Assembly (NCBI GenBank): GCA_016196625.1
Contig: JACPXH010000006.1
Location: 32,660 to 96,659 of the forward strand
DNA from: Candidatus Parcubacteria bacterium
Lineage (GTDB): Bacteria; Patescibacteriota; Minisyncoccia; JACPXH01
DNA: 64,000 nt
Reading direction: 5' to 3'
The position numbers were made by a program, and so were the translations under genes. The first letter of the stretch is position 1. Each line of letters begins with the position of its first letter. The notes below the pieces were generated by a model, which saw only the letters and a program-made list of their open reading frames with translations, ran no database searches and was not told the origin of the DNA. Positions 13,756 to 34,837 of this stretch are shown here, in pieces.

Positions 13756-14199
13756 ATGGTCATGAACGGTAATGGACAGGCGGCATGGGCCGAGGCGGGG
13801 ACCCGGGTAACGGCGTTCCTCGCCGGCCGCGTGGATTATCCGCAGGCGACCGGGCTGGCCGCGGACGTCGCGGCGCTCCGGGCGTACGGCCTGGATCGCC
13901 AGCGGGACTGGCGGTCGCGGGTTTTGAGCGCCGAGCAGGCGCTCTCAGCGATGCGGCGGGTTGAGGCCGAGGCCGCAGCCGCGGCCGAGCGGGTCAGGCA
14001 GGCCGCCGTGTTCAAGACGGCGTACCGGCCCGCGCCGGCGATCGAGCGCCTCACCGGCCGCGGTATCAACGCCGGAATCCGGTGCGGCCGGTCGAACACG
14101 GCCGAGCGGGCGCGGCGCGAGGTGAACCGGGCCGCGCGGGCAGCGGACAACAGCGCCGCGGCCGAGGGGTTCGGCTGCGGAACCAAGAAAGGAGGATAG
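13756..14199 (+). CDS. hypothetical protein (very high GC, Ala/Arg-rich)
   Basis: Strong SD. 147 aa ORF with GC well above the window's average. Confidence 0.4.
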   Translation: MVMNGNGQAAWAEAGTRVTAFLAGRVDYPQATGLAADVAALRAYGLDRQRDWRSRVLSAEQALSAMRRVEAEAAAAAERVRQAAVFKTAYRPAPAIERLTGRGINAGIRCGRSNTAERARREVNRAARAADNSAAAEGFGCGTKKGG

Positions 14200-14493
14200 C
14201 CATTAGTACCTAGTGCGATAAGAAGATAAGGGCGGCCAACACCAGAGCTTATGCATTGCGGGGTGGCAGAGAGCCCGAAATCTCTGCGAACCGGGGAATG
14301 CTTCGCGGTGCGGCCCGCGATTGCGGTCGCAACGATGTTCTTCTGCTACTGCGGGGCAGGCGCGAGTGCTTACACGAGCGCCTGCCCCGTTCCTCCGAGA
14401 TTTGTATGGAATGAATGGTTCGGCAAGATCGCCGCAAAGGACTCATCCATAAAAGCTTCAGAGGAATTGCCGTGCGCGTGGCGTACCCATCGT

Positions 14494-14564
14494 CGTCATT
14501 CTGAGCGAAACGAAGAATCTAGTCCGAACGAGATTCTTCAGTCGCTTCGCTCCCTCAGAATGAC
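14494..14564. repeat. variant cargo-less hairpin-repeat pair (GTCATTCTGAGCGAAACGAAGAATCT / AGATTCTTCAGTCGCTTCGCTCCCTCAGAATGAC)
   Basis: Same architecture as 12760-12848, with CATTCTGAG in place of CATTGCGAG. 10 bp spacer. Confidence 0.7.
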
Positions 14565-14899
14565 ATAAGGTGAGATTAACAACCTGCGAGAGCGTATACC
14601 GTCGGATTGTGGGAAAAGAAACTCCAGGCATTGATTATTGTTCAGTTTGTCTTTTCGATTCGACATTGTACTAAATCGCAAAGTTCCTCGAACTTTGCGA
14701 TCGTACGAATATCGCCGCGCGATGTTCCAGTATGCGTTCTCGCAGGCGGTTAAAGCCCTCCGGCCCCCCGGCAAACTGTGAGCTCAAAAACATTTGCCGG
14801 GCCCCGATGTGCTGAGCATTCAACGTTCTTCCGCCATCCGGCGGAATGGACAAACCCTGCTTCGCGTGAAGCGACGCAGGGTCAGGATAAGGAGGGGCC

Positions 14900-15226
14900 A
14901 TGTTCTCGAAAAACACAACAAGTACCCAAGCCATCGCGGATACGCTTGGGCTGGTGGAGCGTGAAGTGCTCGCGCTCTGTCGGGACAAATGCGACCCGCG
15001 CCGGCAAGCCGCGCTCAACCTTCTGTTGATGGTTGGCGACTTGATGAAAGATGCCGACTATCAGAAGGCCGAGTTTGCGGATCGTTTCCGCGGCGTAGCC
15101 AGCACTCTGGGCTACGAGGTGCGATCGAGCTGCGGCGTAACGGGCAGCGGATCGTCCCTCGGCGTACTCAAGGGGATGCTGGGCGCGATGATCGCGGTCG
15201 GGGAGGTGATCCATGATGCGCTTTAG
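14900..15226 (+). CDS. hypothetical protein
   Basis: ATG preceded by hairpin CCCTGCTTCGCGTGAAGCGACGCAGGG plus AAGGAGGGG. A near-identical leader precedes ORF 16209. Confidence 0.45.
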   Translation: MFSKNTTSTQAIADTLGLVEREVLALCRDKCDPRRQAALNLLLMVGDLMKDADYQKAEFADRFRGVASTLGYEVRSSCGVTGSGSSLGVLKGMLGAMIAVGEVIHDAL

Positions 15227-15422
15227 TTGGGGGATCATCTGCCAGGTCGCGATTGGGTTTGCGGGTATCGTGCTTACCGTATTGATCCTCGGCGCTGTCT
15301 GGCGGCATGGGACTTCCCTGCTGCAAGAGGTGTTGGGAGAATGGTTGCATCAACGGCCCGCATTCGGGCCGATTCAGCTGCTGCCGCGTTTGACGTGGTT
15401 GCGACTGGGGAGGGTGCGATGA
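15213..15422 (+). CDS. small hydrophobic protein
   Basis: SD GGGGAGGTGA. One TM helix. Overlaps the preceding ORF's stop. Confidence 0.35.
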   Translation: MMRFSWGIICQVAIGFAGIVLTVLILGAVWRHGTSLLQEVLGEWLHQRPAFGPIQLLPRLTWLRLGRVR

Positions 15423-15528
15423 GTTCTTAGGAATTTGTGCTGCTCACCGTGGTGGCTGCCGTTGCGGCTTGGTTCATCGTTAGGACTCTCGACCGGAGTT
15501 GATGCCGGTTGAGAGAAAGGAGGACGGC

Positions 15529-15693
15529 ATGATCGCCTTGGCCGTGCTCGTTCTCGCGCAGGCGTGCGCCGTTGGCTTCGCCTGCCTGCTTTTCACGGGC
15601 GGCGAGCCGTGGCAAGAACACGCGCTCGAGCCGATGCCCTCTCGGGTACGGCTCGTCCGCTGGCCGCTGCCAGCGAAACCAAGTCTCAACTGA
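15529..15693 (+). CDS. small hydrophobic protein
   Basis: AAAGGAGGACGGC-ATG. 55 aa with a single TM segment. Confidence 0.3.
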   Translation: MIALAVLVLAQACAVGFACLLFTGGEPWQEHALEPMPSRVRLVRWPLPAKPSLN

Positions 15694-15840
15694 TTTTTTG
15701 ATCTTTCTTTAGCCGCTTCGCGGTTGGCACCGCGGGGCGTTCATGAGTGACCTTCGGTTCCTCGTTCTCGCAGGCGTTTTCGGGGGAAGTCGCCTGTGAG
15801 TTTCAATCATTAAAACTTCTCCCTCCATCCGAGCTCGTCT

Positions 15841-15874
15841 CATTTTCTAATGTATTAATACATTAGAAAATGAT
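15841..15874. repeat. AT-rich palindrome, copy 2 (TTTCTAATGTATTAATACATTAGAAA)
   Basis: See 4776-4813. Confidence 0.8.
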
Positions 15875-16208
15875 GTGAGGCGGGTTGTGATGGAGTCATG
15901 ATGCTCGATCCGAGTTCAGAACGGGATTGCTTCGCCCCGTAGAATCCCGCTAGGATTTGTACGTGGCTCGCAATGACGACCGTTCAGGCTTCTGATGGAG
16001 CTCCGGGCTACATCGCAACATTCGCAAGAATTTTGTGATCGCCCGACCATCGCAGGGCGATGGTTTAGGACTCCGTGTTCTATTCATCTTATGCGAAAAC
16101 CCCGCCTTGCGCGGGGTTTTCGCTTGGTGGTAGGTTGGGCAAACACAAACCGCCGTTTTCGGGCAAGCCCTGCTTCGTGCAAAGCGATGCAGGGCAAGGA
16201 GGGGATAA

Positions 16209-16483
16209 TGGCCAAACGGTGTTGGATTCGAGTCGGCAGTAAGGCGTTTCAAGTTGAGCTGGGAGACAAGACGTGGCATCCGGCCGGAAGCTCGCCGTGC
16301 GCAAAGTGCGGTAGAAACGACGACCGGACCGCCAGCCTTCTCGTCACCGGCGTGATAGACCCAAAAGGGTTTTACGTGCCGATGACGTCTCAACTTTGGG
16401 ACATTGCCGCCAATGCTTTCCGACGCAGCGGCAATGTGCTGGCTGGGACGCTGTGCGCGAGTTGTTTGAGTCCGCTGGTTTGA
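16209..16483 (+). CDS. hypothetical Cys-rich (zinc-ribbon-like) protein
   Basis: Start MAKRCWIRVG after the hairpin+AAGGAGGGG leader. CxxC (CAKCG) and CASC pairs. Confidence 0.45.
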
Positions 16484-16499
16484 GGAAGGAGGAGGTGAG

Positions 16500-16826
16500 G
16501 TGATGAACGAACGATGGATTGAGGTGGATGGGCGGCGGTTTCGGGTGGTGCTGAGGGCGCCTCTGCGGTATCGGGGTGAACTCGTTCCGTGCCGCGGCTG
16601 CAGACAGCTCGGTAAGGCGATGACCGTCCGGCACGTCGAGCGGGTGTTTGGCGCCGACGGTGGAGAGCTCCTACGGGACTCGCCCGATGGGAGCCTCGCG
16701 GCCAACACCTTCAGCCGCGAGCACCTGTTGGCCGGACCGTTGTGCAGGGGATGCAGGTTTATCCGGACGATATGGAGTTTTCTTCGCCTTCCGTTGCGCC
16801 CCGTGCCCGTTGGCCCGAGCCGATAG
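16500..16826 (+). CDS. hypothetical Cys-rich protein
   Basis: SD GAAGGAGGAGGTGAGGTG. CRGCRQ...CRGCRF motifs. Confidence 0.4.
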   Translation: MMNERWIEVDGRRFRVVLRAPLRYRGELVPCRGCRQLGKAMTVRHVERVFGADGGELLRDSPDGSLAANTFSREHLLAGPLCRGCRFIRTIWSFLRLPLRPVPVGPSR

Positions 16827-16917
16827 TTACTCCGCAGTAACGTTCTTGCTGTACCTTTCGCCGCGCCCCGTGCCAGTTTGGCCCGGGGCGTCCTGTTTTC
16901 TTGGCTTAGCGGCGTAA

Positions 16918-22404: not shown

Positions 22405-23481
22405 ATGGCGAAAGACTATTATCACATTCTCGGCGTCGGGCAGAACGCCTCCAAAGACGAGATCAAGAAGGCTTTCCGTCGGCTGGCCCACGAATACCAC
22501 CCTGATCGCGGCGGTAATGCCGAGCGTTTCAAAGAGATTAACGCGGCCTACCAGGTGTTATCGGACGACTTGAAGCGCAGCCAGTACGATCGATTCGGTA
22601 CGACCTTCGAGGGCAGCGCCGGCTCTCAAGCCGGCGCTGGAACCGGTTTCGGTTTTGACTCCACGCCGGGGTTTGATTTCGAGGGATTGGATCTGGGAGA
22701 TATTTTCGGCGAGTTTTTCGGCGCGCGACCGCGGCAAACGCGCGCGCGGCCCAGACGCGGCCACGATTTGACGGTTGAACTGACCATTGATTTTGAGGAG
22801 GCCTTCTTTGGCACCGATAAGGAAGTAGCGCTGCGCAAGCACGCAGTCTGCAGCCGCTGTGAGGGCACGGGCCGCGAGCCGGGGACAGGCGAGACTACCT
22901 GTACGACTTGCCGCGGCGAAGGCGAGGTGCGGCAGACCTCGCGCAGCTTCTTCGGTACGTTCACGCAGGTCGCCATGTGCTCCATCTGTCATGGTCGGGG
23001 CAAGGTGGCTGAAACGCCGTGCCGGCAGTGCCGCGGGGCAGGCCGGGAGCTTGCCTCGAAGCGTCTGCGCGTTCACATTCCGGCTGGCATTGACGACGGC
23101 GGCACGATCAAACTTGCGCATGAAGGCGAGGCGGGTGAGTACGGCCAGCCCTCCGGGGATCTTTACGTTGCCGTGCATGTCCGGTCAAGCCCTCTGTTTC
23201 GCCGCGACGGCAACGATCTGCACACCACCACCGCCGTGTCTTTGACGCAAGCGGCACTGGGCGCAAGCATGCCGGTGCTCCTGCCCGACGGAACGATCCG
23301 TCTGGATGTGCCGGCCGGAGTCCAGAGCGGTGCGGTCATCCGTATTCGTGCCAAAGGCATGCCGCAGATCGGCGGCCGTGGCCGGGGAGATTTGTATGTC
23401 CATATTGAGGTGAAGACCCCGGAGCGATTGAGCCGCAAGGCAAAGAAATTGCTGGAGGAATTGCGGGAAGAAGGAGTATAA
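22405..23481 (+). CDS. dnaJ: molecular chaperone DnaJ
   Basis: J-domain with HPD, G/F-rich linker, four CxxCxGxG zinc-finger repeats and the C-terminal domain. Confidence 0.9.
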   Translation: MAKDYYHILGVGQNASKDEIKKAFRRLAHEYHPDRGGNAERFKEINAAYQVLSDDLKRSQYDRFGTTFEGSAGSQAGAGTGFGFDSTPGFDFEGLDLGDIFGEFFGARPRQTRARPRRGHDLTVELTIDFEEAFFGTDKEVALRKHAVCSRCEGTGREPGTGETTCTTCRGEGEVRQTSRSFFGTFTQVAMCSICHGRGKVAETPCRQCRGAGRELASKRLRVHIPAGIDDGGTIKLAHEGEAGEYGQPSGDLYVAVHVRSSPLFRRDGNDLHTTTAVSLTQAALGASMPVLLPDGTIRLDVPAGVQSGAVIRIRAKGMPQIGGRGRGDLYVHIEVKTPERLSRKAKKLLEELREEGV

Positions 23482-25033: not shown

Positions 25034-25107
25034 GCGCCCGTAGCTCAGTCCGGTAGAGCAGCTGGCTTTTAACCAGATGGTCGGAGGTTCGAATCCTCCC
25101 GGGCGCA
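25034..25107 (+). tRNA. tRNA-Lys (anticodon UUU)
   Basis: Cloverleaf: acceptor GCGCCCG/CGGGCGC, D-arm GCTC-AGTCCGGTA-GAGC, anticodon loop CTTTTAA (U33, UUU, A37), T-arm GGAGG-TTCGAAT-CCTCC, discriminator A. CCA is not encoded. Confidence 0.85.
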
Positions 25108-25109
25108 CT

Positions 25110-26018
25110 GTGAAAGCGAATGGTTTCCGAGAGGCCTGCCGACGTTTGAGGACGGACGGCGCCACGCTCGGCGAAATCGTGGCTGCAACGAGACGACCGA
25201 AAAGTTCGGTCTACTTTCACATCCAAGACATTAAACTCTCGGAAGAGTTCCGAGAGGCCCAATACGAGCGAGCCACCAAACGGATTATCGAGTTTAACGA
25301 GAGTCGGAGGGGAAAGAGTGCAGCTGGGCGTCATCCGGTTCCGTTCACTGTTTGGACCGTACCATTCGTTGAGCTAGTCAGTCATTTGTTGTTCGACGGA
25401 GAAATAAGTCGCAACGCGTGCGTGTACACCAACCGGAACCGGATGCTGATTCAGCGCGTGGCGCGGTTGATGCGACGAGTATACGATCATCAACCTCGAG
25501 AACTTGAGTCAACGCCGGGGGTGTATCGGATTTCTTATTATAACGTGGAGCTGGCCGCATACTTGCAGGGGAAAGCGGACGAACTTTTGCAGCGGATTTC
25601 AATCGCTCCACAGGAATTGAAGCTAACATTTCTCCGTTCATTTTTCGACGATGAAGGATCGGTTTATTTCATCCGCAGGAAACGACTGGTTCGGGGCTAT
25701 CAGCACAATGACAGCATTCTTAAACTCGTTCAGCAGCTATTGAAAGACTTTAGCATCAAAAGTAAGACTGACAAGAAATACCACGAGATCGTTATTAGTG
25801 GTCGAGAGCATCTGGAGCGTTTCTCGGCCGAGATCAACTTTTCGCCGTCCGTGGCGGTTAACCCGGATCGAAAAAACAGCATTTGGAGGCGGCCGCTCGA
25901 AAAACGCGAGATACTCCGAGTAGCTCTTGCTTCCTACCGCCGCGACGTTGTGGCCACCCGCTGTCCGTCGAGGCCGATAAGCGTAGACGACGTTACTATG
26001 GGCGCACCAAATGTATAA
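25110..26018 (+). CDS. LAGLIDADG-family homing endonuclease (two-motif, free-standing), GTG start
   Basis: Two LAGLIDADG-like motifs ~100 aa apart (VSHLLFDGEIS and TFLRSFFDDEGSV). Basic N-terminal region. The ORF begins 3 nt after the tRNA-Lys 3' end. The upstream part of the track ORF overlaps the tRNA. Confidence 0.5.
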   Translation: MKANGFREACRRLRTDGATLGEIVAATRRPKSSVYFHIQDIKLSEEFREAQYERATKRIIEFNESRRGKSAAGRHPVPFTVWTVPFVELVSHLLFDGEISRNACVYTNRNRMLIQRVARLMRRVYDHQPRELESTPGVYRISYYNVELAAYLQGKADELLQRISIAPQELKLTFLRSFFDDEGSVYFIRRKRLVRGYQHNDSILKLVQQLLKDFSIKSKTDKKYHEIVISGREHLERFSAEINFSPSVAVNPDRKNSIWRRPLEKREILRVALASYRRDVVATRCPSRPISVDDVTMGAPNV

Positions 26019-26615: not shown

Positions 26616-27107
26616 ATGTCCCTACACCGGAAAAAGTACCAAAATGCGGTTCTGTACTTGTGCCGGAAGCTAAAAGGCGAAGTACGCGGCAAGAAAAAGC
26701 TAGCGAAACTACTCTATTTCGCAGATTTTGATTTGTACGAGAAAAGTCAGAAATTAATAACTGGTGATGTTTATTATGCGTTTCCAATGGGGCCAGTGCC
26801 ATCTGCGTTGGAAGCAATTACTGCGGAAATGGCAAAAAAGAAAATGCTCGGTGTTGAGCACGTGGAAGAACGAGAAGGGTACAACCTGACGGAAGTATAT
26901 AAGTGTCTTACTGAACCAGACCTTTCTGTATTTGACGATGAAGAAAAGAAAATGCTTGACCGTATTATCGTAAAATATGGTCATCTAACAGGCAAGCAGC
27001 TAGAAGAGTTATCCCACGCCGAAGCACCATATATCGGTACGGAATTGCGAAAACGAATTCCCTACGAACTTGCCTTCTACCGTGGTACAGATTTTAGTGG
27101 TTCATGA
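26616..27107 (+). CDS. Panacea-domain (DUF4065, SocA-like) putative antitoxin
   Basis: KKLAKLLYFADFDLYEKSQKLITGDVYYAFPMGPVPSAL is the Panacea/DUF4065 core. Overlaps the next ORF by 4 nt (ATGA). Confidence 0.6.
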   Translation: MSLHRKKYQNAVLYLCRKLKGEVRGKKKLAKLLYFADFDLYEKSQKLITGDVYYAFPMGPVPSALEAITAEMAKKKMLGVEHVEEREGYNLTEVYKCLTEPDLSVFDDEEKKMLDRIIVKYGHLTGKQLEELSHAEAPYIGTELRKRIPYELAFYRGTDFSGS

Positions 27108-27472
27108 TTCAGTTTCTGTACCACGACAGCTTTCAGAAAGAAATCGCCGCCCTAGAGCGGCGCTTTCATACTATACGCGATGGTCTTTCTGCGTTTGAGA
27201 AATTGTGTGAAGTACAATTCAATCCAGCAAGTCCGCGACAGGTGATTGCGCCCGCAAAATTGCATCGTGTCACGCAAAACGATATTTGGACGCTCTGGAA
27301 AGTTGAGCTTGTTGTACCGAATTCCGGCTTGCGTCCGAACCAGTGGCCACGAATGTGGTTTGTAGTGAGGGGCGCGATTATTGCGTTTTTGTGCGTCTCG
27401 TCTCATATTGGTAACTACAACGATGAGAGTATGAATCGCCTTGCTTTGTCGAGGGCGTCCGACTTCTTTTGA
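27104..27472 (+). CDS. putative toxin partner, RelE/ParE-like C-terminus
   Basis: N-terminus MIQFLYHDSFQKEIAALERR and C-terminus RMWFVVRGAIIAFLCVSSHIGNY resemble RelE/HigB (R..Y.v....iIl.v.hH..Y). Translationally coupled to the Panacea gene. Confidence 0.4.
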   Translation: MIQFLYHDSFQKEIAALERRFHTIRDGLSAFEKLCEVQFNPASPRQVIAPAKLHRVTQNDIWTLWKVELVVPNSGLRPNQWPRMWFVVRGAIIAFLCVSSHIGNYNDESMNRLALSRASDFF

Positions 27473-27516: not shown

Positions 27517-27560
27517 GCGGTCAGTCAATATCAACAGGCGGCCGGAACGGCCGCCTGTTG
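27517..27560 (+). terminator. rho-independent terminator (AATATCAACAGGCGGCC-GGAA-CGGCCGCCTGTTGATATT + TTTAG)
   Basis: Perfect 17 bp stem, then ATATTTTA. Confidence 0.7.
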
Positions 27561-27842
27561 ATATTTTAGAGGTCTTGCGTCTGTCGCGGTTTTCAGCTAT
27601 CTATAGGGAGGGTGTCCTTTTGCAACGAATCGAAGTAGATGATCTCGCTGGAGGACTTTGCCTCGCCCTCCTTGTTATCACGGCCCTTGTAGTTTTTGCC
27701 GCACCACTCGCACCTGATATTCCCGCCTGTTCCGCCTCCGCTCTCCCCAAACAGCCCCTACGTCTCCTCAAACCGCGCCATGGCGAACCTCCTCTCTCGG
27801 GTTCGGGAAGCTGCAGGTTTGCGATTGCTGCTTCGAGGAGAT

Positions 27843-27866
27843 CGTGCGTGCGTGCGTGCGTGCGTG
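27843..27866. repeat. tetranucleotide microsatellite (CGTG)x6
   Basis: Perfect six-unit repeat. Lies inside overlapping + and - ORFs of uncertain reality. Confidence 0.9.
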
Positions 27867-28018
27867 CGGTGCTTTCGCTCATGCCGCGGATCATCCCATG
27901 GTTCATCCGGATACTTCAGAGTAGGCGTCAGCGGCTCGAGGGCCAGGAAGCGATGATTGTCCAGCTTCGCCGGGCTCTCAAGCAGTGATCGTGGGCAGTG
28001 TGAATAGGAGGCAACGTT

Positions 28019-28594
28019 ATGCGACTCATCGGACAGTGTCCGGCTTGCGGCAAGGACGATCAGTGTTTTCGGGTGGAGCCGCCGCGGGGCGGCATCGTCG
28101 GCGTCGGATGTCGTTCCTGCGGGCAGATGTGGTCTTCGGTGCCCGGCGCGGTGGCCGAGGCGATCCGTAACGGACGGCGGCTCGTTCCAGTTTCTATCGA
28201 GCGCGATCCGCACCTCGTCATTGTCACGCAGCCCCTCAAGGCTGACATTCCGGGCGCTCACCTCCTGATTCGCGCGTTCAATGAAGCACTGCGGGCTGTC
28301 TTCGGTTTGGGGAAGTGCCATGCGATCGAGGAAGGCATCGAGGGTGTGTACGACGGAGAGCCGATTGAGTTGCGCAATTTTACCGATGCGTGGATCGGCC
28401 TCGAAGACGCCCACCGCTTCGCAGACGCTTCGGGCGATCCCGGCGCCAGCGAGCGCTGCCAAGAGATTCTCGGACAGTACGAGCTTCTCTTGCGGATGCT
28501 GTCGGTGAGGAGGGGCTGCGCGTCGGCCGCGAGTGGACCCGGGGCGCCATCCTCAAGCTGCATATCCGCGATTCGTGCCGCGAGGAGAAGGTGA
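28019..28594 (+). CDS. hypothetical zinc-ribbon protein (C-terminal part may be mis-framed and continue in ORF 28390..28776)
   Basis: CPACGK...CRSCG at the N-terminus. Protein-like for ~150 aa, then R/S-rich. ORF 28390..28776 in another frame has a protein-like C-terminus. Confidence 0.3.
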   Translation: MRLIGQCPACGKDDQCFRVEPPRGGIVGVGCRSCGQMWSSVPGAVAEAIRNGRRLVPVSIERDPHLVIVTQPLKADIPGAHLLIRAFNEALRAVFGLGKCHAIEEGIEGVYDGEPIELRNFTDAWIGLEDAHRFADASGDPGASERCQEILGQYELLLRMLSVRRGCASAASGPGAPSSSCISAIRAARRR

Positions 28595-28794
28595 AGTTGC
28601 TTCTCTGGTGCACGATTCAGCGGTGCTTGGGAGGTCAGGTCGTCGAGCAAGTGTTCCGGCGGCTTGATTGGGCGGTGAGTCGCGCTGCGCTCGCAGTCTA
28701 CGCATCAAGCATGAGCGAGGCGGAGATCGCGGAACAGTTCTGGTTGCGAGAATCGGTGGCACAAAACAGCTCGTAGGAGGAAACAACAAGAGGC

Positions 28795-28835
28795 GCCCCG
28801 TCCCGATGTATCGGGACGGGGCGCGATTCGTTTTT
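28795..28835 (+). terminator. rho-independent terminator (GCCCCGTCCCGAT-GTAT-CGGGACGGGGC + GATTCGTTTTT)
   Basis: 12 bp GC stem plus T-run. Confidence 0.65.
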
Positions 28836-29006
28836 CGCGGTCTGGGGCCATATGGAGTTGACCCCGTACCACAACGCGCCGCAGATACTTACTCTTAATT
28901 CGCCGTCCAACTAGTTATGGACGCACCGACCCGGCAATTTCGCTCCGCCGTTGTGGTACGGGGTTGACGGCGCATCCGTTGCCGCTATACTTGAAGCATC
29001 CATACC

Positions 29007-29408
29007 ATGGCGAAAGCGCACAAAACCGCAGCGAATGGCCCGGTGAATATTCGAGCTGAATTCAGAAAGCTTGGTATTTTGGTCGAGCATGGAAACGATC
29101 AATTTCGAGCGGTTCGGGAGCAATACGGGAGTATTCAGAGGACGCTCGATAGCCACACACAGGCCCTCGCCACCCATACGCGTATTCTCGACTACCATTC
29201 GAGACTTCTTGAGCATCATTCCGAACTTCTCGAAGCGCACTCGGAGACATTGAAGTCGCATACCGAGATGATTGCTAGTTTATCGGTAGATATGGCGATT
29301 GTGAAACAGGATATTGCGCTCATCAAAAGCGCTTTTAAGCAGAAGGTTGATCGAGATGAGTTCGCTGCTTTAGAGCGGCGAGTGGCGCTTCTCGAGAGGA
29401 AGAGGTAG
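29007..29408 (+). CDS. hypothetical coiled-coil protein with H-x3-L heptad repeats
   Basis: TTGACG-16-TATACT promoter at 28964-28991. Repeats of the form LDSHTQALATHTRILDYHSRLLEHHSELLEAHSETLKSHTEM. Confidence 0.5.
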   Translation: MAKAHKTAANGPVNIRAEFRKLGILVEHGNDQFRAVREQYGSIQRTLDSHTQALATHTRILDYHSRLLEHHSELLEAHSETLKSHTEMIASLSVDMAIVKQDIALIKSAFKQKVDRDEFAALERRVALLERKR

Positions 29409-29433
29409 GAAGCGGTTTTTATTACGCTTCAAG

Positions 29434-29468
29434 CCAAAATCCGGCCCCAGGGGCCGGATTTTGGCTTC
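29434..29468. terminator. bidirectional hairpin terminator (GCCAAAATCCGGCCCC-AGG-GGCCGGATTTTGGC)
   Basis: Perfect 15 bp stem flanked by A/T runs on both sides. Confidence 0.65.
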
Positions 29469-29536
29469 ATGGGCTTGCGTGGATTTTTAACAATGGCTCT
29501 ATAGAGCCGTTTCCGCGTTTTATTTGTTTGAACGCA

Positions 29537-29565
29537 TTGACAACTAACTTTCAAGGTGCTATAAT
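29537..29565 (+). promoter_or_regulatory. consensus sigma70 promoter TTGACA-17-TATAAT
   Basis: Perfect hexamers with a 17 bp spacer. Drives transcription into direct-repeat copy 1. Confidence 0.65.
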
Positions 29566-29576
29566 GTAAGAGTAAA

Positions 29577-29661
29577 ATAGAAGTTTCAGATGGAGTTCCT
29601 TGAGACAAAACCAGAATGGCGCCGCCGGCCTCCGCCAGATGGCGGGAACGGGCGAGAAGGA
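29577..29661 (+). repeat. ~85 bp direct repeat, copy 1 (flanks vapBC)
   Basis: ATAGAAGTTTCAGATGGAGTTCCTTGAGACAAAACCAGAATGGCGCCGCCGGCCTCCGCCAGATGGCGGGAACGGGCGAGAAGGA. About 93% identical to 30387-30472. Confidence 0.85.
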
Positions 29662-29691
29662 AGAGAGGAAGAAGGAGTTCTTCAAAAAATA

Positions 29692-30066
29692 TCACAAGGT
29701 AAGAATGTTGAGTTCGGCTATCTTTTTGAAATCCCGAACGTTGCGCGTGACCAGAGATGAGTTTGTCAGGAGAGCAGTTGCGGCGATGATGCTATCTCCG
29801 AGCTGAAGCCCGTAGCGTCGGCGAACGAGCGCGGCAATATCGGCCATCTGGGCATCAACCGGAACAAGTACGAATTGTTCAAGCAGACGATAGATTTTTT
29901 TCTCTTCATTCTCGCGGAGAATCGGCGCGGCGAAAAGTTCAAGACGAGTAATTGCGGAAACGAAAAGCCGCTCGCCATCGAGTAGCCATTGCTCGAGCGT
30001 TTTGCTGACTTGTTGGTCACGCTCGAGGTGATAGATGAGGATGTTCGTGTCAATTGTCAAGGGCAC
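29692..30066 (-). CDS. vapC: PIN-domain toxin VapC (GTG start)
   Basis: PLTIDTNILIYHL ... LVTRNVRDF is the PIN domain with its conserved acidic residues. Confidence 0.85.
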   Translation of the reverse strand: MPLTIDTNILIYHLERDQQVSKTLEQWLLDGERLFVSAITRLELFAAPILRENEEKKIYRLLEQFVLVPVDAQMADIAALVRRRYGLQLGDSIIAATALLTNSSLVTRNVRDFKKIAELNILTL

Positions 30067-30078
30067 AGGTGCATGGAA

Positions 30079-30255
30079 TCAGCGGCGGACTGTGGCGTAG
30101 AGTTTGCGCATGGCGCGCTGGTACTTGATGGGGTCAAGCTTGCGGTTGCGCCACAAACCAGCGGTCTCACGGATGACCTTTTTAATCTCCGTTGGATCCC
30201 GGCGCAGTAGGGCCATAGCGCCAATCGTTGTTTTCTCCCGTGTTTTCGTGATCAT
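30079..30255 (-). CDS. vapB: putative VapB antitoxin (58 aa, not in ORF track)
   Basis: Hand translation: MITKTREKTTIGAMALLRRDPTEIKKVIRETAGLWRNRKLDPIKYQRAMRKLYATVRR. Stop lies 12 nt before the vapC GTG. Size and position fit an antitoxin. Confidence 0.5.
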   Translation of the reverse strand: MITKTREKTTIGAMALLRRDPTEIKKVIRETAGLWRNRKLDPIKYQRAMRKLYATVRR

Positions 30256-30386
30256 ACGCGTTCAGTATTACGAATCCAATTGCAATAGTCAAGGAATGTT
30301 GCAGGTCGAGAGAGGTTGGGAATTTAAGTTCTCGTTCTCTCTCGGTTCAAAGATGGGTCGATGTTTCTTCTTCGCAATTGCTGATG

Positions 30387-30472
30387 ATAGAAGTTTCAGA
30401 TGGAGTTCCTTGAGACAAAAACCAGAATGGCGTCGCCGGCCTCTGCCAGATGGCGGAAACGGGCGAGAGGGA
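30387..30472 (+). repeat. ~85 bp direct repeat, copy 2
   Basis: See 29577-29661. Followed by SD GAGGGAGGTGAGTGAG and an ATG at 30483. Confidence 0.85.
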
Positions 30473-30482
30473 GGTGAGTGAG

Positions 30483-31021
30483 ATGAAGTGCGATGAGGCA
30501 TTGGCAGCGGCCAAGCCGTTGTCGGGCGTAAAGATGGCGCAGTATCAATCGCCCGAGACGGGCGAGCGGTACCGCGCCGGGCTCGAATCCGAATCCAACG
30601 GTCGGTTTTGGATGTGGAAGATCGTTGGGGGGGGTGGGAGGTTGGTCGGGCCCGACGGATTCCCGGCTTCCTCCTCAAGGATCTCCGTGAGCGGGACGGT
30701 TGGATACCGGATCCGCCGACGGGAGACGGAGAGGGGCGTCGGGCAGCGCGTGAGGCCTCGGCGGCCCGCACGCGAGCTCTCGAAGAGGCTCGCCAGCGGG
30801 TGTCAGAGGCCGAGGCGCGCCGCGCAGCCGAGGCCCCGCTGGTTGCGTCTCGGGAGGCAGCCGCGGCCAAGGAGGCCCAGCGGCAGGCGCTCCTAAAAAA
30901 GAAAGAGCTCCTCGAGCGCAAGCTCAAAGAGTTCGAGGGGACTGGTCGCGAGGAGCAGGTTTTGGAATGGCTCCTCAAGGCGGAGGAAGAGCTGGCCGCC
31001 ATTGAAAAAGGAGGTGAGTGA
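30483..31021 (+). CDS. hypothetical protein interrupted by a -1 frame change at a G8 tract (30627-30634)
   Basis: The N-terminal frame (MKCDEALAAAKPLSG...) and the C-terminal frame (coiled-coil EARQRVSEAEARRAAEA...EELAAIEKGGE) join at GTTGGGGGGGGTGGG. Confidence 0.35.
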
Positions 31022-31022
31022 G

Positions 31023-31226
31023 ATGGCCGGTAAGCGCGTGACCGCCGTCTGCCCGGCGTGCAGCTGGGTGTGGCGGGTCTCGCAGGGCGCCGCGACGCGG
31101 TGCCCGTGCGGAACGAGGACCGCCCCCGACCGGTGGGGGCAGAAATACTCGGTCAGCCGCCGTCGCGGCCGAGTGGTGATCGTCTTCGCGGCGAAAACCG
31201 TGAAGAAGGTCGTGAAAGTGTACTAG
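31023..31226 (+). CDS. small zinc-ribbon protein
   Basis: AAAGGAGGTGAGTGAG-ATG. CPACS...CPCG motif. 67 aa. Confidence 0.4.
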   Translation: MAGKRVTAVCPACSWVWRVSQGAATRCPCGTRTAPDRWGQKYSVSRRRGRVVIVFAAKTVKKVVKVY

Positions 31227-32228
31227 GCGGCGAAAAGCAGCCGCACTAAGCTGTCGAACCGGCCACTACGCTCAACCGCTCAAACGGGCAACCGTGAGAG
31301 CAGACGGGAGCGCACGCCGGGGAAAATAACCGACCGAGTGCGGGGCGAGCTGGCGGAATTGGGGTTTTCGTCAGTTCAGCAAGGTCGGCGCGACGTGTTG
31401 AGTCAAACCGGAGGCTAACGCACGGCGTAAGGAAGATAAATCCGGAAGACAGCGCGCGGGACCAGTCGTGGTGGCGTTGTCGGGGCAGGCGAGATGCCTG
31501 ATCAACCCTCGCATCCATCCCCGGAGGGAAGGTCGAAATTTCGTGCAGTTCTTTAGCGGGCAAGAAAGCGTCTTGTCCCATCATCCGAGTCCATCAGCAG
31601 TTTGCTGGCGGATTGCGATGGGGAGGAGAGATAACCACAGACAACCTGACCGAACGTTCCGCGGCATGCCGCAGATCAAGCGCGCGGCGAACTGCGAATG
31701 ACGGTGGTTGAGCGCTGTGGGCCCGATGGGCAAGCCAGAGAGCGGAAATGCTCAGGCGACTCTACTCCTTCTCTCTTCTGAATTCCGAAATAGTTTGGGG
31801 TTCAGACGAGGGAATTGGAAAGTTCGTTGGCAAAACCGCGGATCCATTCCGCACCGCGCCCGACGGGGATCGGGCTTTGTGCCGAGTCGCGTTGAGCGAT
31901 GGGGCAGTGAGGTACCTTGGCAGAAACAGCGGGTTGAACCCGCACGCACGCCCCAGTCGAGTTCGCTTCGTGCGGACCGAATGAGGGGCGAGGAGAGAGC
32001 TATGTTCGTTGTGTTTGGGGTGAAAGTTGGTACTGAGCACGTTTTTGGCCGCTTTCCAAATTTGGAAGAGGCCAAGGATGAGGGCGAAAAGGTTGGATCG
32101 CCCCACCGGGAATTCCCAGGTCTCTGGGGGACCAGGGGTCGGGCAATTGGCATTGGGCCCAAGTGGCGTGGGCGAGCGGGGATGCGGCGGAGGATGCCGT
32201 CGCAGAGAAGTTGAGCAGGTTGGCGATT

Positions 32229-32522
32229 ATGGCGGATTTCCGAAACACGCTGCTCGATCTGGTCAGCGTGTTCGGCTGGCAGCTCGAACACCTCTCGCCT
32301 GCGGCGAGAGCGAGGATCCGCAGGGATGCTTTCGGCGGGTTACCGCCCGCCGAAAGCTCGCAGCCTAAATTTCTGGGGGCGTGGGAGGCGGTTTCCTTTT
32401 CGTCTTCGTCGAACCGCTGCATCGTTTGTGCGGCGAAGCAGGAGACAGTGGGTGCCTACGCCATCTGCCCGCGGTGCGGCACTTCTTGTGTCGTTGCCGC
32501 GATGCTCCTTGGCGTGAAGTAG
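32229..32522 (+). CDS. hypothetical protein with C-terminal zinc ribbon (CIVC...CPRCG)
   Basis: Protein-like ORF. A hairpin terminator follows at 32528-32560. Confidence 0.4.
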   Translation: MADFRNTLLDLVSVFGWQLEHLSPAARARIRRDAFGGLPPAESSQPKFLGAWEAVSFSSSSNRCIVCAAKQETVGAYAICPRCGTSCVVAAMLLGVK

Positions 32523-32671
32523 TCAAATGCGGGAGGACGTCTTGAGGCGACGTCCTCCCTTCCACCGAATCCATCAGCGTTGTTGGTGGGTTCAGTGGAG
32601 CGGGAGTTCCTTGCCGGGAACCGTTGGAGTTTCAGCTCGCCAACCGGCGGGTCTGAAGCAAGGAGGGAGCG

Positions 32672-32839
32672 ATGGAGCGAACGGCGCAGGAGATCGCGAA
32701 GTACGAGGCCGGGATTGATCGCATTTTCGCCGAGACCACGGCGGGGATGTTTGCTCCCGGTCTGATGGGAACGCTCTTCGCGATTCCCGTTGTGGCCGGC
32801 GGGATCGCGCTCATCGTAGTCAAATTCTTCCCGCCCTAA
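32672..32839 (+). CDS. small membrane protein (55 aa, below ORF-track cutoff)
   Basis: AAGGAGGGAGCG-ATG. Hand translation MERTAQEIAKYEAGIDRIFAETTAGMFAPGLMGTLFAIPVVAGGIALIVVKFFPP. Confidence 0.3.
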   Translation: MERTAQEIAKYEAGIDRIFAETTAGMFAPGLMGTLFAIPVVAGGIALIVVKFFPP

Positions 32840-32858
32840 GGAAAGGAGGAGGGATGCA

Positions 32859-33053
32859 ATGATGTTCATGGCGAGGTATCTATTTCCTATCTGGGGCGTT
32901 GTTTTGCTCGCAGGGGCCGGTTCGATGGCGTGGGACTTCTACGGCGTACCGGTGGTGCTTCCACCGCACGTCGCCCGGGCCATCGGCGGCATGGCTCTCA
33001 CCGGGGCGGCTGCGTTCGTTTGCAGCGCCCTGGCGTGGTCGGAGAGGAGGTGA
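32859..33053 (+). CDS. small membrane protein
   Basis: AAGGAAAGGAGGAGGG-ATG. Two hydrophobic helices. 64 aa. Confidence 0.35.
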   Translation: MMFMARYLFPIWGVVLLAGAGSMAWDFYGVPVVLPPHVARAIGGMALTGAAAFVCSALAWSERR

Positions 33054-33263
33054 GCAGAGTGATCTGGCGCGCGTGGCGTTTTTATTGGATTGTGAACGGA
33101 ATCGTCTGCTGGTCATGGGCCGAAGTGCGCGAAGCCCGGGCCAAGTAGACAGACCGCACCACAAGGAGGTGATGCGGACGGGCAGGCCGAGTAATCCAGC
33201 CTGCCCCTTCCACCGAGCTAATCTCGTGTGAGGTTGGTTCAGGGGAGGTGTGGCCTTGAAAAG

Positions 33264-33476
33264 TTATCGGAATTTCTCCTTGGGCAGTTTGGACTGCTTC
33301 ACGATGGCGAGAAAGGTGCCAATGTGGATTGGTCGGGACCTTCCATGAAGGGGAACCGGCACCATGGTGCCGGTTCGAGAATTCTTGAAAATCACGTGGC
33401 TTCCTTTCTGTCGTGCCAAGACGAATCCGTTCTCTTTGAGGATTTGGATGACGCGTTTTGCGGGCAGTGAGCGCAT
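33264..33476 (-). CDS. hicA: HicA-family mRNA interferase toxin
   Basis: VIQILKENGFVLARQKGSHVIFKNSRTGTMVPVPLHG matches the HicA/YcfA signature (GSH...P.H). Confidence 0.8.
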   Translation of the reverse strand: MRSLPAKRVIQILKENGFVLARQKGSHVIFKNSRTGTMVPVPLHGRSRPIHIGTFLAIVKQSKLPKEKFR

Positions 33477-33480
33477 GCCG

Positions 33481-33741
33481 TTATCGTTTCGCTGGCACCT
33501 TTACGGGGATTTCGTCAACAATGAGATGGCGTGAATATGTAGGGATTGTTTCGTTGGATTCTCGAAATTCCTCCAGCCACAGTTCCAAGACTTCCTGCGC
33601 CATTCGTTGCGCTTGTTCGAAGTTCCGGCCAAATGTGACACAGCCGGGGAATGAGGGGAATGAGACGTTATAGCCACCCTCTTGAGCAGGTTCGAAGACT
33701 GCGTAGTAGTGGAGGATTTTTGTCCGCGTTGTTCGTGTCAT
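33481..33741 (-). CDS. hicB: HicB-family antitoxin
   Basis: YYAVFEPAQEGGYNVSFPSFPGCVTFGRNFEQAQRMAQEVLELWLE is the UPF0150/HicB fold signature. Sits directly upstream of hicA. Confidence 0.8.
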   Translation of the reverse strand: MTRTTRTKILHYYAVFEPAQEGGYNVSFPSFPGCVTFGRNFEQAQRMAQEVLELWLEEFRESNETIPTYSRHLIVDEIPVKVPAKR

Positions 33742-34803: not shown

Positions 34804-34837
34804 TGCCGCATTATAATACGATCGTAGGATAATGCAG
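34804..34837. repeat. palindrome GCCGCATTATAATACGATCGTAGGATAATGCAGC (family 2, copy 3)
   Basis: Same element as 9759-9790. Sits ~60 nt upstream of the aspS start. Confidence 0.8.

Follow-up and report, generated by a model that had tools for sequence, protein, structure and literature searches.

Between about 27.6 and 33.3 kb of a stretch of DNA from a Candidatus Parcubacteria bacterium lies a block crowded with very small genes, and the question it raises is whether these genes are the remains of a phage or belong to the chromosome in which they are found. We studied the block within the window, by which we mean the whole 64,000-nucleotide (nt) stretch of contig JACPXH010000006.1 that was analysed. 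The original prediction, drawn from the sequence alone, was of a degraded prophage or phage-derived island. We arrive at a different answer, to which we assign a probability of roughly 0.6: the block is a lineage-specific accessory region of the Parcubacteria chromosome and not a prophage, situated in a variable, toxin–antitoxin-rich stretch between the tRNA-Lys and HIT-family genes on one side and an aminoacyl-tRNA synthetase (aaRS) gene on the other, with three genes broken by single-base deletions and with a plus-strand structured RNA as its most conserved element. The coordinates of the features are collected in Table 1.

Synteny, cassette turnover and the phage question

When open reading frame (ORF) A of the block was repaired and used as a query, a full-length ortholog, P0002, was recovered from GCA_964522735.1, the only close relative that could be compared, where it lies on contig L082. 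The ortholog of the gene starting at 28019 lies on another contig of that assembly, L086, whose end overlaps with the beginning of L082. Taken together, the two contigs are collinear with the window from 25999 (HIT-family gene) to 36029 (aaRS gene), cassette differences aside. Both genomes have the same core order, namely a leader, ORF A, a zinc-ribbon protein of 67 amino acids (aa), the RNA, ORF C, a conserved leader and three tiny membrane peptides. In the window, the genes 5′ of the block are dnaK, dnaJ, a gene with an NYN domain, tRNA-Lys (25034-25108), a LAGLIDADG-like ORF and the HIT-family gene, followed by a SocA/Panacea toxin–antitoxin pair; the block itself begins about 2.5 kb downstream of tRNA-Lys. 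On its 3′ side come hicAB, a membrane protein gene and a class II aaRS gene at 34832. Relatives of the DnaJ encoded at 22405 are all at most 49% identical and belong mostly to Patescibacteria.

What distinguishes the two genomes is their set of cassettes. Those of the window (SocA/Panacea, vapBC and hicAB) all lie within 7 kb. The first contains a SocA/Panacea-domain antitoxin (E = 2e-21) in 26616-27472; the overlapping 122-aa ORF that comes next has no family match and is presumably the cognate toxin of this Panacea-type pair. VapBC comprises a PIN toxin (29692-30066) and a 58-aa putative antitoxin without a family match (30079-30255). In VapBC as in HicAB, a toxin domain lies beside a small antitoxin gene, as in type II toxin–antitoxin systems. 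In the relative, the SocA/Panacea pair was not seen and a 195-aa gene stands at the corresponding position, a PIN toxin–antitoxin pair is found at another point, after the RNA, and other genes follow the block. The relative also has an extra 135-aa zinc-ribbon gene, missing from the window, upstream of its 28019 ortholog. An 84-nt direct repeat in L082 (2067-2150 and 5034-5117, 98% identical) is found just upstream of the PIN cassette and just after module copy 3 (see below); it ends in GGAGTTC(G/C)TTGG, a motif also found in the leaders, and may mark cassette boundaries.

The vapBC slot is bracketed by two copies of the leader, and the relative has two leader copies too, which bracket a pair of unrelated plus-strand genes in place of vapBC. 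The same leader stands before different genes in L086 and in a third contig, L083. The window has exactly three sites with the 11-mer GGAGTTCCTTG, one in each leader copy and one upstream of the membrane-peptide genes, in their conserved leader. The consensus promoter at 29537 would drive plus-strand transcription through the leader and the core genes, and the repeated leaders may serve both as 5′ untranslated regions (UTRs) and as homology arms for cassette exchange. Seen in this way, the locus would be a small worked example of accessory-region turnover, in which repeated leaders frame the exchange of cassettes and protein genes are worn down by single-base deletions, with the RNA and the tiny membrane peptides persisting.

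With its toxin–antitoxin cassettes, its cassette turnover between close relatives, its orphan small genes and the upstream tRNA-Lys, the block resembles toxin–antitoxin-rich variable regions and tRNA islands. It differs from them in that the ORFs scanned include no integrase, in that no direct repeat derived from the tRNA is present, and in that the relative has the same gene order in the backbone that separates the cassettes, with conserved non-toxin–antitoxin genes and the RNA. Nor do we find the deviant composition and absence from close relatives that mark a horizontally acquired island, since the block is syntenic in GCA_964522735.1. Core-genome conservation in relatives, which had been named as an outcome that would refute the phage idea, applies to one aspect of the locus and not to another: the HIT-to-aaRS stretch is syntenic, but the gene families occur in only two or three genomes. 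Among 5.8 billion proteins, no more than two or three relatives were found for ORF A and the 67-aa zinc-ribbon protein, the latter being represented by just two sequences. We therefore regard the region as lineage-specific and not as part of the core.

The aaRS gene is 83% identical in nucleotides to its counterpart in the relative, with a synonymous divergence (dS) of 0.85 and a non-synonymous divergence (dN) of 0.07, as against a dS of 0.13-0.39 for the genes adjoining the RNA. The low dS of these neighbours indicates that the two genomes have a more recent common ancestor in this segment than in their housekeeping genes, and on the strength of this difference some lateral exchange of the 31.0-33.2 kb segment seems likely.

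Such exchange is one of the observations that would suit a degraded prophage or phage-derived island, whose early or lysis region would survive as the small genes, with the membrane proteins as holin-like products. The many tiny orphan ORFs with strong Shine–Dalgarno sites, the small membrane proteins, the nearby toxin–antitoxin cassettes and the location downstream of tRNA-Lys also fit this description. The searches nevertheless argue against it. Comparison of the small proteins with PHROGs, Pfam, NCBIfam and PADLOC gave no match at a meaningful E-value, and the phage protein database in particular (PHROGs) returned only weak zinc-ribbon noise. Nothing was found by blastn against the 50,697 phage records of INPHARED, IMG/VR contained nothing related to ORF A, to ORF C or to the RNA, and a BFVD fold search with the 250-aa family, the one well-modelled protein, gave no match at E ≤ 0.001. 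Integrase, terminase, capsid and endolysin domains were absent from the ORFs scanned against Pfam, and the 3′ end of tRNA-Lys (22 nt, ≤3 mismatches) is present only once, so that it forms no attachment (att) repeat. In the relative's chromosome, moreover, the same order is found between the same flanking genes. A prophage is therefore unsupported at the level of phage proteins, phage DNA, viral folds, integrase, att sites and composition, and we hold it to be very improbable.

With regard to composition, the description of the block as GC-rich stands only weakly: its GC content is 0.587 compared with 0.567 for the window, but 7.5% of equal-sized windows are as high. Sub-blocks within it range from 0.50 to 0.66. 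The impression of a high GC content arises mainly from the AT-richer flank at 25.1-27.6 kb, whose value of 0.484 is the lowest in the neighbourhood, and truly deviant composition is seen in the AT-richer stretch from 22 to 29 kb. By tetranucleotide deviation, the block falls in the top 7.7% of distances only. Its composition is not clearly deviant and lies inside the window's range.

The RNA candidate and the two-hairpin module

The most conserved stretch of the block is the segment of about 580 nt at 31237-31815. Between 31350 and 31750 it is 97-98% identical to L082, and its divergence of about 2% is far below the synonymous divergence of its neighbours. Coding scores over the candidate are low in all six frames, each of which has stops; substitutions show no 3-periodicity (32/27/36), and the indels measure 4, 3, 1 and 1 nt. 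Gene calls on the Logan contig include 112 aa at 31246-31584 (minus strand) and 78 aa at 31748-31984 (plus strand), both of which lack a coding signal and are likely spurious, and 70 aa at 32002-32214 (plus strand), which is the N-terminal fragment of the frameshifted ORF C. For annotation, this implies that a string of ‘hypothetical small ORFs’ called over 31.2-32.0 kb would be spurious.

A metagenome scan yielded a homolog from one further lineage, on the JGI contigs L084/L085, with 77% identity over 31286-31538. RNAalifold on three sequences predicts 14 helices with 80 pairs, in which 96% of the pair cells are paired, and compensatory changes fall in 11 pairs, compared with 0-3 in slid-partner controls. 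Relative to shuffled sequence, the fold is much stronger on the plus strand (z = -3.95) than on the minus strand (z = -1.62). Conservation, compensation, lack of a coding signal and a strand-specific fold, by which structured non-coding RNAs are generally recognized, are all present, with two independent full-length lineages. Only the closest relative also has the 3′ extension of the candidate, and conservation with the distant homolog does not include the 3′ half. In L083, the conserved stretch starts at the equivalent of about 31237, directly after an unrelated upstream gene.

In a search of Rfam 15 (4227 families) at gathering thresholds, only tRNA-Lys was matched and the RNA candidate was not; at E ≤ 10, neither the 700-nt stretch nor the distant L085 homolog gave anything credible overlapping 31237-31815. 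The known families considered and rejected, as giving no covariance-model match, were RNase P, tmRNA, SRP, 6S, group I/II introns, riboswitches, OLE, GOLLD, ROOL, HEARO and self-cleaving ribozymes.

The genomic context gives some indication of the kind of RNA this might be. Three contigs extend far enough to show the gene upstream; in each, that gene is on the plus strand and the RNA begins within about 15 nt of its end. What lies 3′ of the RNA in L082 and L085 is a toxin–antitoxin pair and not a gene for cis regulation. On account of these neighbours, the RNA looks stand-alone or 3′-UTR-derived and not like a riboswitch-type leader. Small membrane-protein genes are found downstream of it in all three lineages. 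In the distant lineage (L084 1-3500 / L085 880-1350), the RNA lies among two HicB/HicA-like pairs and a RelE/ParE-like pair, as judged by translations, and upstream of small multi-transmembrane ORFs, on a chromosomal contig that also carries fpg and tldD/pmbA.

In several respects, the candidate is reminiscent of the large bacterial non-coding RNAs OLE, GOLLD, ROOL, HEARO/omega RNA and raiA: it is several hundred nt long with a multi-helix junction, it is conserved above the neighbouring genes and its phylogenetic range is narrow. OLE is encoded beside small membrane-protein genes, as is the candidate here. It differs from these RNAs in being known from only three or four contigs of the candidate phyla radiation type and in having no Rfam match, and from HEARO in that no IscB/TnpB gene lies near it. 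Bacteria of the candidate phyla radiation have tiny genomes with little room for non-coding DNA, and large structured RNAs without a known job are, to our knowledge, rare. An RNA of 400-580 nt kept at 98% identity in a tiny genome whose aaRS gene is at 83% nucleotide identity is therefore likely to be important in the lineage. We put at about even the chances that 31237-31815 is the founding member of an undescribed class of large structured RNA in Parcubacteria, with a 5′ domain of about 310 nt organized as a multi-way junction and closed by a two-hairpin module that is reused at the ends of neighbouring messages, and that it occurs in toxin–antitoxin-rich regions upstream of small membrane-protein genes and works with them as a ribonucleoprotein or regulatory RNA. 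The tie to the small membrane proteins is a working guess from the gene neighbourhood in three lineages.

The two-hairpin module corresponds to what had been described as intrinsic-terminator hairpins repeatedly followed by a conserved box. The hairpins are real, but no T run follows any of the three, and the terminator scan lists 28793-28824 and none of these sites; it is the box, not a T run, that comes after each hairpin. As for the 20-nt box, it is exact at 32559 and has 3 mismatches at 31579, where it forms part of the module copy inside the RNA candidate, but the third copy (at about 33206) retains only the first half and has just CCTTCCACCGA and a downstream GGTTCAG..GGAG in common with the others. 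Hairpin 1 is GC-rich and variable in sequence. Hairpin 2 is longer and imperfect, with the box as its 5′ arm and GGTTCAG..GGAG in its 3′ arm. We aligned the three copies of the window, their three L082 orthologs and the analogous L085 site; in this alignment, pairing is seen in 92% of cells, and compensatory changes affect 9 of the 19 pairs. Helix 2 has recurrent G-U pairs, two of them being U-G in 6/6 copies, which indicates structure in the plus-strand RNA. The leader that contains copy 2 is about 93-95% identical to the relative, as read by eye from the alignment, and is better conserved than the coding sequence upstream.

In their placement, the modules resemble Rho-independent terminators: a GC-rich hairpin stands at the end of the RNA 5′ domain, directly after the stop codon of ORF C (32527) and 27 nt after the last membrane-peptide ORF (33176). 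They differ in that there is no U tract, that a second, imperfect hairpin with sequence-conserved arms always comes next, and that their sequences, unlike those of ordinary terminators, are kept between paralogous copies and between genomes. The modules may act at the RNA level as 3′-end-forming, processing or stabilizing elements that need no U tract. In this role they would form the ends of the RNA and of the messages for ORF C and the membrane peptides, and a stable RNA some 400 nt in length would be freed from the 3′ side of its upstream gene.

It could also be argued that the conserved 31.3-31.8 kb segment and the repeated hairpin and leader elements act as DNA, as recombination or insertion sites of an integron-like cassette system or one resembling miniature inverted-repeat transposable elements, and that there is no RNA gene. 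Cassette differences are indeed located exactly beside leaders and modules, the 84-nt repeat of L082 lies beside a cassette at one position and a module at the other, GGAGTTCCTTG is restricted to this block and dS in the segment is low. On the other hand, no recombinase domain was found in the window ORFs scanned, the recurrent G-U pairs of helix 2 and the much better folding of the plus strand favour structure at the RNA level, and no recombination site approaches the size of a 5′ domain of about 310 nt with 14 helices, in which compensatory changes are seen in a distant lineage. We consider a DNA-level role unlikely. An integron cassette array proper was rejected, as the modules, inspected directly in the sequence, lack GTTRRRY/RYYYAAC cores and no recombinase domain was found in the window ORFs that were scanned.

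Frame breaks in three protein genes

The original prediction noted a change of frame at a G8 homopolymer in ORF A; the tract and the frame change are real, and G8 is the longest G run in the window. Replacement of G8 by G9 restores a frame of 179 aa. The ortholog P0002 is a single continuous ORF of 168 aa across the site (...FWVHKIVGPGGWEG...) without a G tract, and at the position of G8 it has the codons GGC CCC GGC GGC, reading GPGGW. Relative to this ortholog, the G8 site appears to be a genuine frame break in one gene. The dN/dS ratio of ORF A is about 0.14 in the N-terminal part and 0.51 in the C-terminal part, and nucleotide identity to L082 falls to about 55%.

Two other genes of the block are broken as well. 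The 53 homologs of the ORF at 28019 have a length of about 250 aa; the ORF aligns to their residues 1-161, and the 28390-28776 frame encodes the C-terminus that it lacks. The reading frame is lost here through a 1-nt gap near 28501, at a site without a homopolymer. ORF C is interrupted beside a G5 run, and its ortholog (L082 3784-4284) is intact. The description of the block as degraded is supported by three 1-nt deletions relative to intact orthologs, one missing zinc-ribbon gene and a 16-nt expansion of a microsatellite. The breaks, the missing gene and the expansion together point to decay of accessory genes. The frameshifts would reflect relaxed selection and pseudogenization of accessory protein genes in this genome, with the RNA and the membrane peptides remaining under constraint.

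Should the three breaks be sequencing or assembly errors, the genes would be intact and G8 would really be G9. We view this as rather doubtful, even though the sequence is the consensus of a metagenome-assembled genome, the longest G run and a G5 run are found at or beside two of the breaks, all three are 1-nt deletions and the broken genes keep a dN/dS below 1 relative to their orthologs. Over 30877-32871, a span that takes in the ORF C break beside the G5 run, the Logan assembly of run SRR12113416 matches at 100% identity, and this break is therefore not peculiar to one assembler. No homopolymer is present, as noted, at the break near 28501. In other parts of the window, fifteen long ORFs have Pfam domains that mostly span the full model, which argues that errors are not genome-wide and that the breaks are concentrated in the block; the gene deletion and the microsatellite expansion in the same block fit real decay.

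We also considered whether G8 is a phase-variation switch, with ORF A switched on and off as strand slippage lengthens or shortens the tract. As at homopolymer contingency loci and programmed frameshift sites, the run lies inside an ORF and a change of one nt restores the frame, and its length is exceptional for the window. It differs from such sites in that the tract is absent from the ortholog, and hence is not a conserved feature, and in that the breaks of two other genes in the block fall where there is no repeat or only a short one, a pattern suggestive of general decay. We consider phase variation very improbable. A programmed ribosomal frameshift at G8 was rejected, since P0002 is one continuous ORF and neither a slippery heptamer nor a stimulatory structure is conserved.

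Overall, a number of points weigh against the reading of the block as a decaying accessory region with a structured RNA at its centre. The frameshifts lie in a metagenome-assembled genome, and the second assembly, which covers only the ORF C break, comes from a single run and may hold the same reads. The full 5′ domain of the RNA is represented in only two independent lineages, plus one fragment of 33-125 nt, which makes the covariation statistics thin, and the structure is derived from the same sequences on which it is tested. Given the low dS of the neighbours, part of the 98% identity would be due to recency rather than constraint. Finally, the promoter, the RNA ends and the terminator role are all predictions.

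Coordinates and further features of the locus

Table 1. Features of the block and its edges, in order of position within the window.
Position	Strand	Feature	Basis or remark
27527-27565	.	Perfect 18-bp inverted repeat at left block edge, after SocA/Panacea pair	Sequence scan
27843-27868	.	(CGTG)6.5 microsatellite	16 nt longer than relative, which has no repeat there
28019-28776	+	Frameshifted gene, uncharacterized family of about 250 aa	N-terminal CxxC...CxxC zinc ribbon, KA1-like alpha/beta domain, helical C-terminus
28793-28824	.	GC-rich 14-bp hairpin, T-rich tails on both strands; terminator-like, after 28019 gene	Terminator scan
29007-29408	+	Heptad-repeat (H-x3-L) coiled-coil protein, 133 aa	Almost no leader; relative's counterpart shorter, diverged
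29537-29565	+	Sigma-70-type promoter TTGACA-17-TATAAT, extended TG (predicted)	12/12 consensus positions; directly upstream of leader copy A
29577-29678	+	Leader copy A, arm of about 105-nt direct repeat, contains GGAGTTCCTTG	Repeat search
29692-30255	-	vapBC-type toxin–antitoxin cassette between leader copies	PIN E = 2.4e-22
30387-30489	+	Leader copy B, running into Shine–Dalgarno site and start codon of ORF A	Repeat search
30483-31021	+	ORF A: N-terminal beta-rich domain, then coiled coil	1-nt deletion in G tract 30627-30634
31023-31226	+	Zinc-ribbon protein, 67 aa, basic C-terminus	82% amino-acid identity to relative, dN 0.11, dS 0.39
31237-31815	+	Conserved structured non-coding RNA candidate	5′ multi-helix domain 31237-31550, two-hairpin module 31553-31632 (box copy 1), 3′ extension to about 31815
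32002-32522	+	ORF C, about 173 aa, C-terminal zinc ribbon	1-nt deletion adjoining G5 run 32126-32130
32523-32671	+	Conserved intergenic leader of membrane-peptide genes	Module copy 2 (32527-32606, exact box), GGAGTTCCTTG at 32603
32672-33148	+	Three tiny hydrophobic ORFs, strong Shine–Dalgarno sites	dN/dS about 0.3-0.4, dS 0.13-0.22
33176-33255	+	Two-hairpin module copy 3, right edge of conserved block	Relative: compensatory changes in hairpin 1, box unchanged
33264-33741	-	hicAB toxin–antitoxin cassette	HicA 1.3e-16, HicB 8.8e-11; absent at this position in relative

Features that had not been listed before are the frame breaks at about 28501 and 32130, the 105-nt repeat around vapBC and the non-coding stretch of about 580 nt. 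Most of the small signals that had been listed were recovered. Good Shine–Dalgarno-like sequences stand before the starts at 28019, 30483, 31023, 32002, 32672, 32859 and 33059, and none was found before the start at 29007. Translations show CxxC...CxxC zinc ribbons in the 28019, 31023 and 32163/32002 ORFs. The heptad protein has a 21-nt period in its gene, which is preceded by a promoter-like site (28964-28991) and followed by a perfect 18-bp hairpin (29431-29467). The microsatellite, first given as six units, extends to six and a half. The three hydrophobic ORFs encode 55 aa (32672-32839), 64 aa (32859-33053) and 29 aa (33059-33148), and amino-acid identity to the relative is 83% for the 55-aa and 94% for the 64-aa product. 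Small membrane proteins of 55-64 aa had been described as single-pass; they are hydrophobic and conserved, but the 64-aa protein looks two-pass by sequence.

The ribosome-binding region GGAGGTGAGTGAGATG is found exactly at 30470-30485 (ORF A) and 31010-31025 (67-aa gene), with the variant GGAGGTGAGCAGAGTG at 33046-33061, before the 29-aa ORF. This fixed unit of Shine–Dalgarno sequence plus spacer is common to block genes and L083 and is unusually invariant. Towards the left edge of the block, 27629-27797 is inverted with respect to L086 1977-2188. The adjacent 27869-27988 is nearly identical in nucleotides to the relative; read on the plus strand, it could specify a conserved 40-aa peptide, and read on the minus strand, it could be part of a 92-aa ORF, which the 16-nt microsatellite expansion would break. 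Upstream of the block, the 313-aa ORF at 25077-26018 starts inside or just after tRNA-Lys, contains a LAGLIDADG-like domain (E = 1.5e-10) and may be a homing-endonuclease-type gene beside the tRNA.

A similar block of small genes with a shared hairpin leader had been reported at 13756-16830, and the leader is indeed repeated: a 40-nt hairpin plus AAGGAGG lies at 14848-14887 and at 16161-16200, with 80% identity, before two small genes. The ORFs of this second block span 14900-15226, about 16206-16483 and 16500-16826. Those at about 16206 and 16500 look like paralogous small zinc-ribbon proteins (W-I-x-V..CxxC...LLAGxLCxxC). Downstream of them, and just upstream of hrcA, is a 30-nt direct repeat (16787-16816 and 16854-16883), the two copies of which are 80% identical and 67 nt apart.

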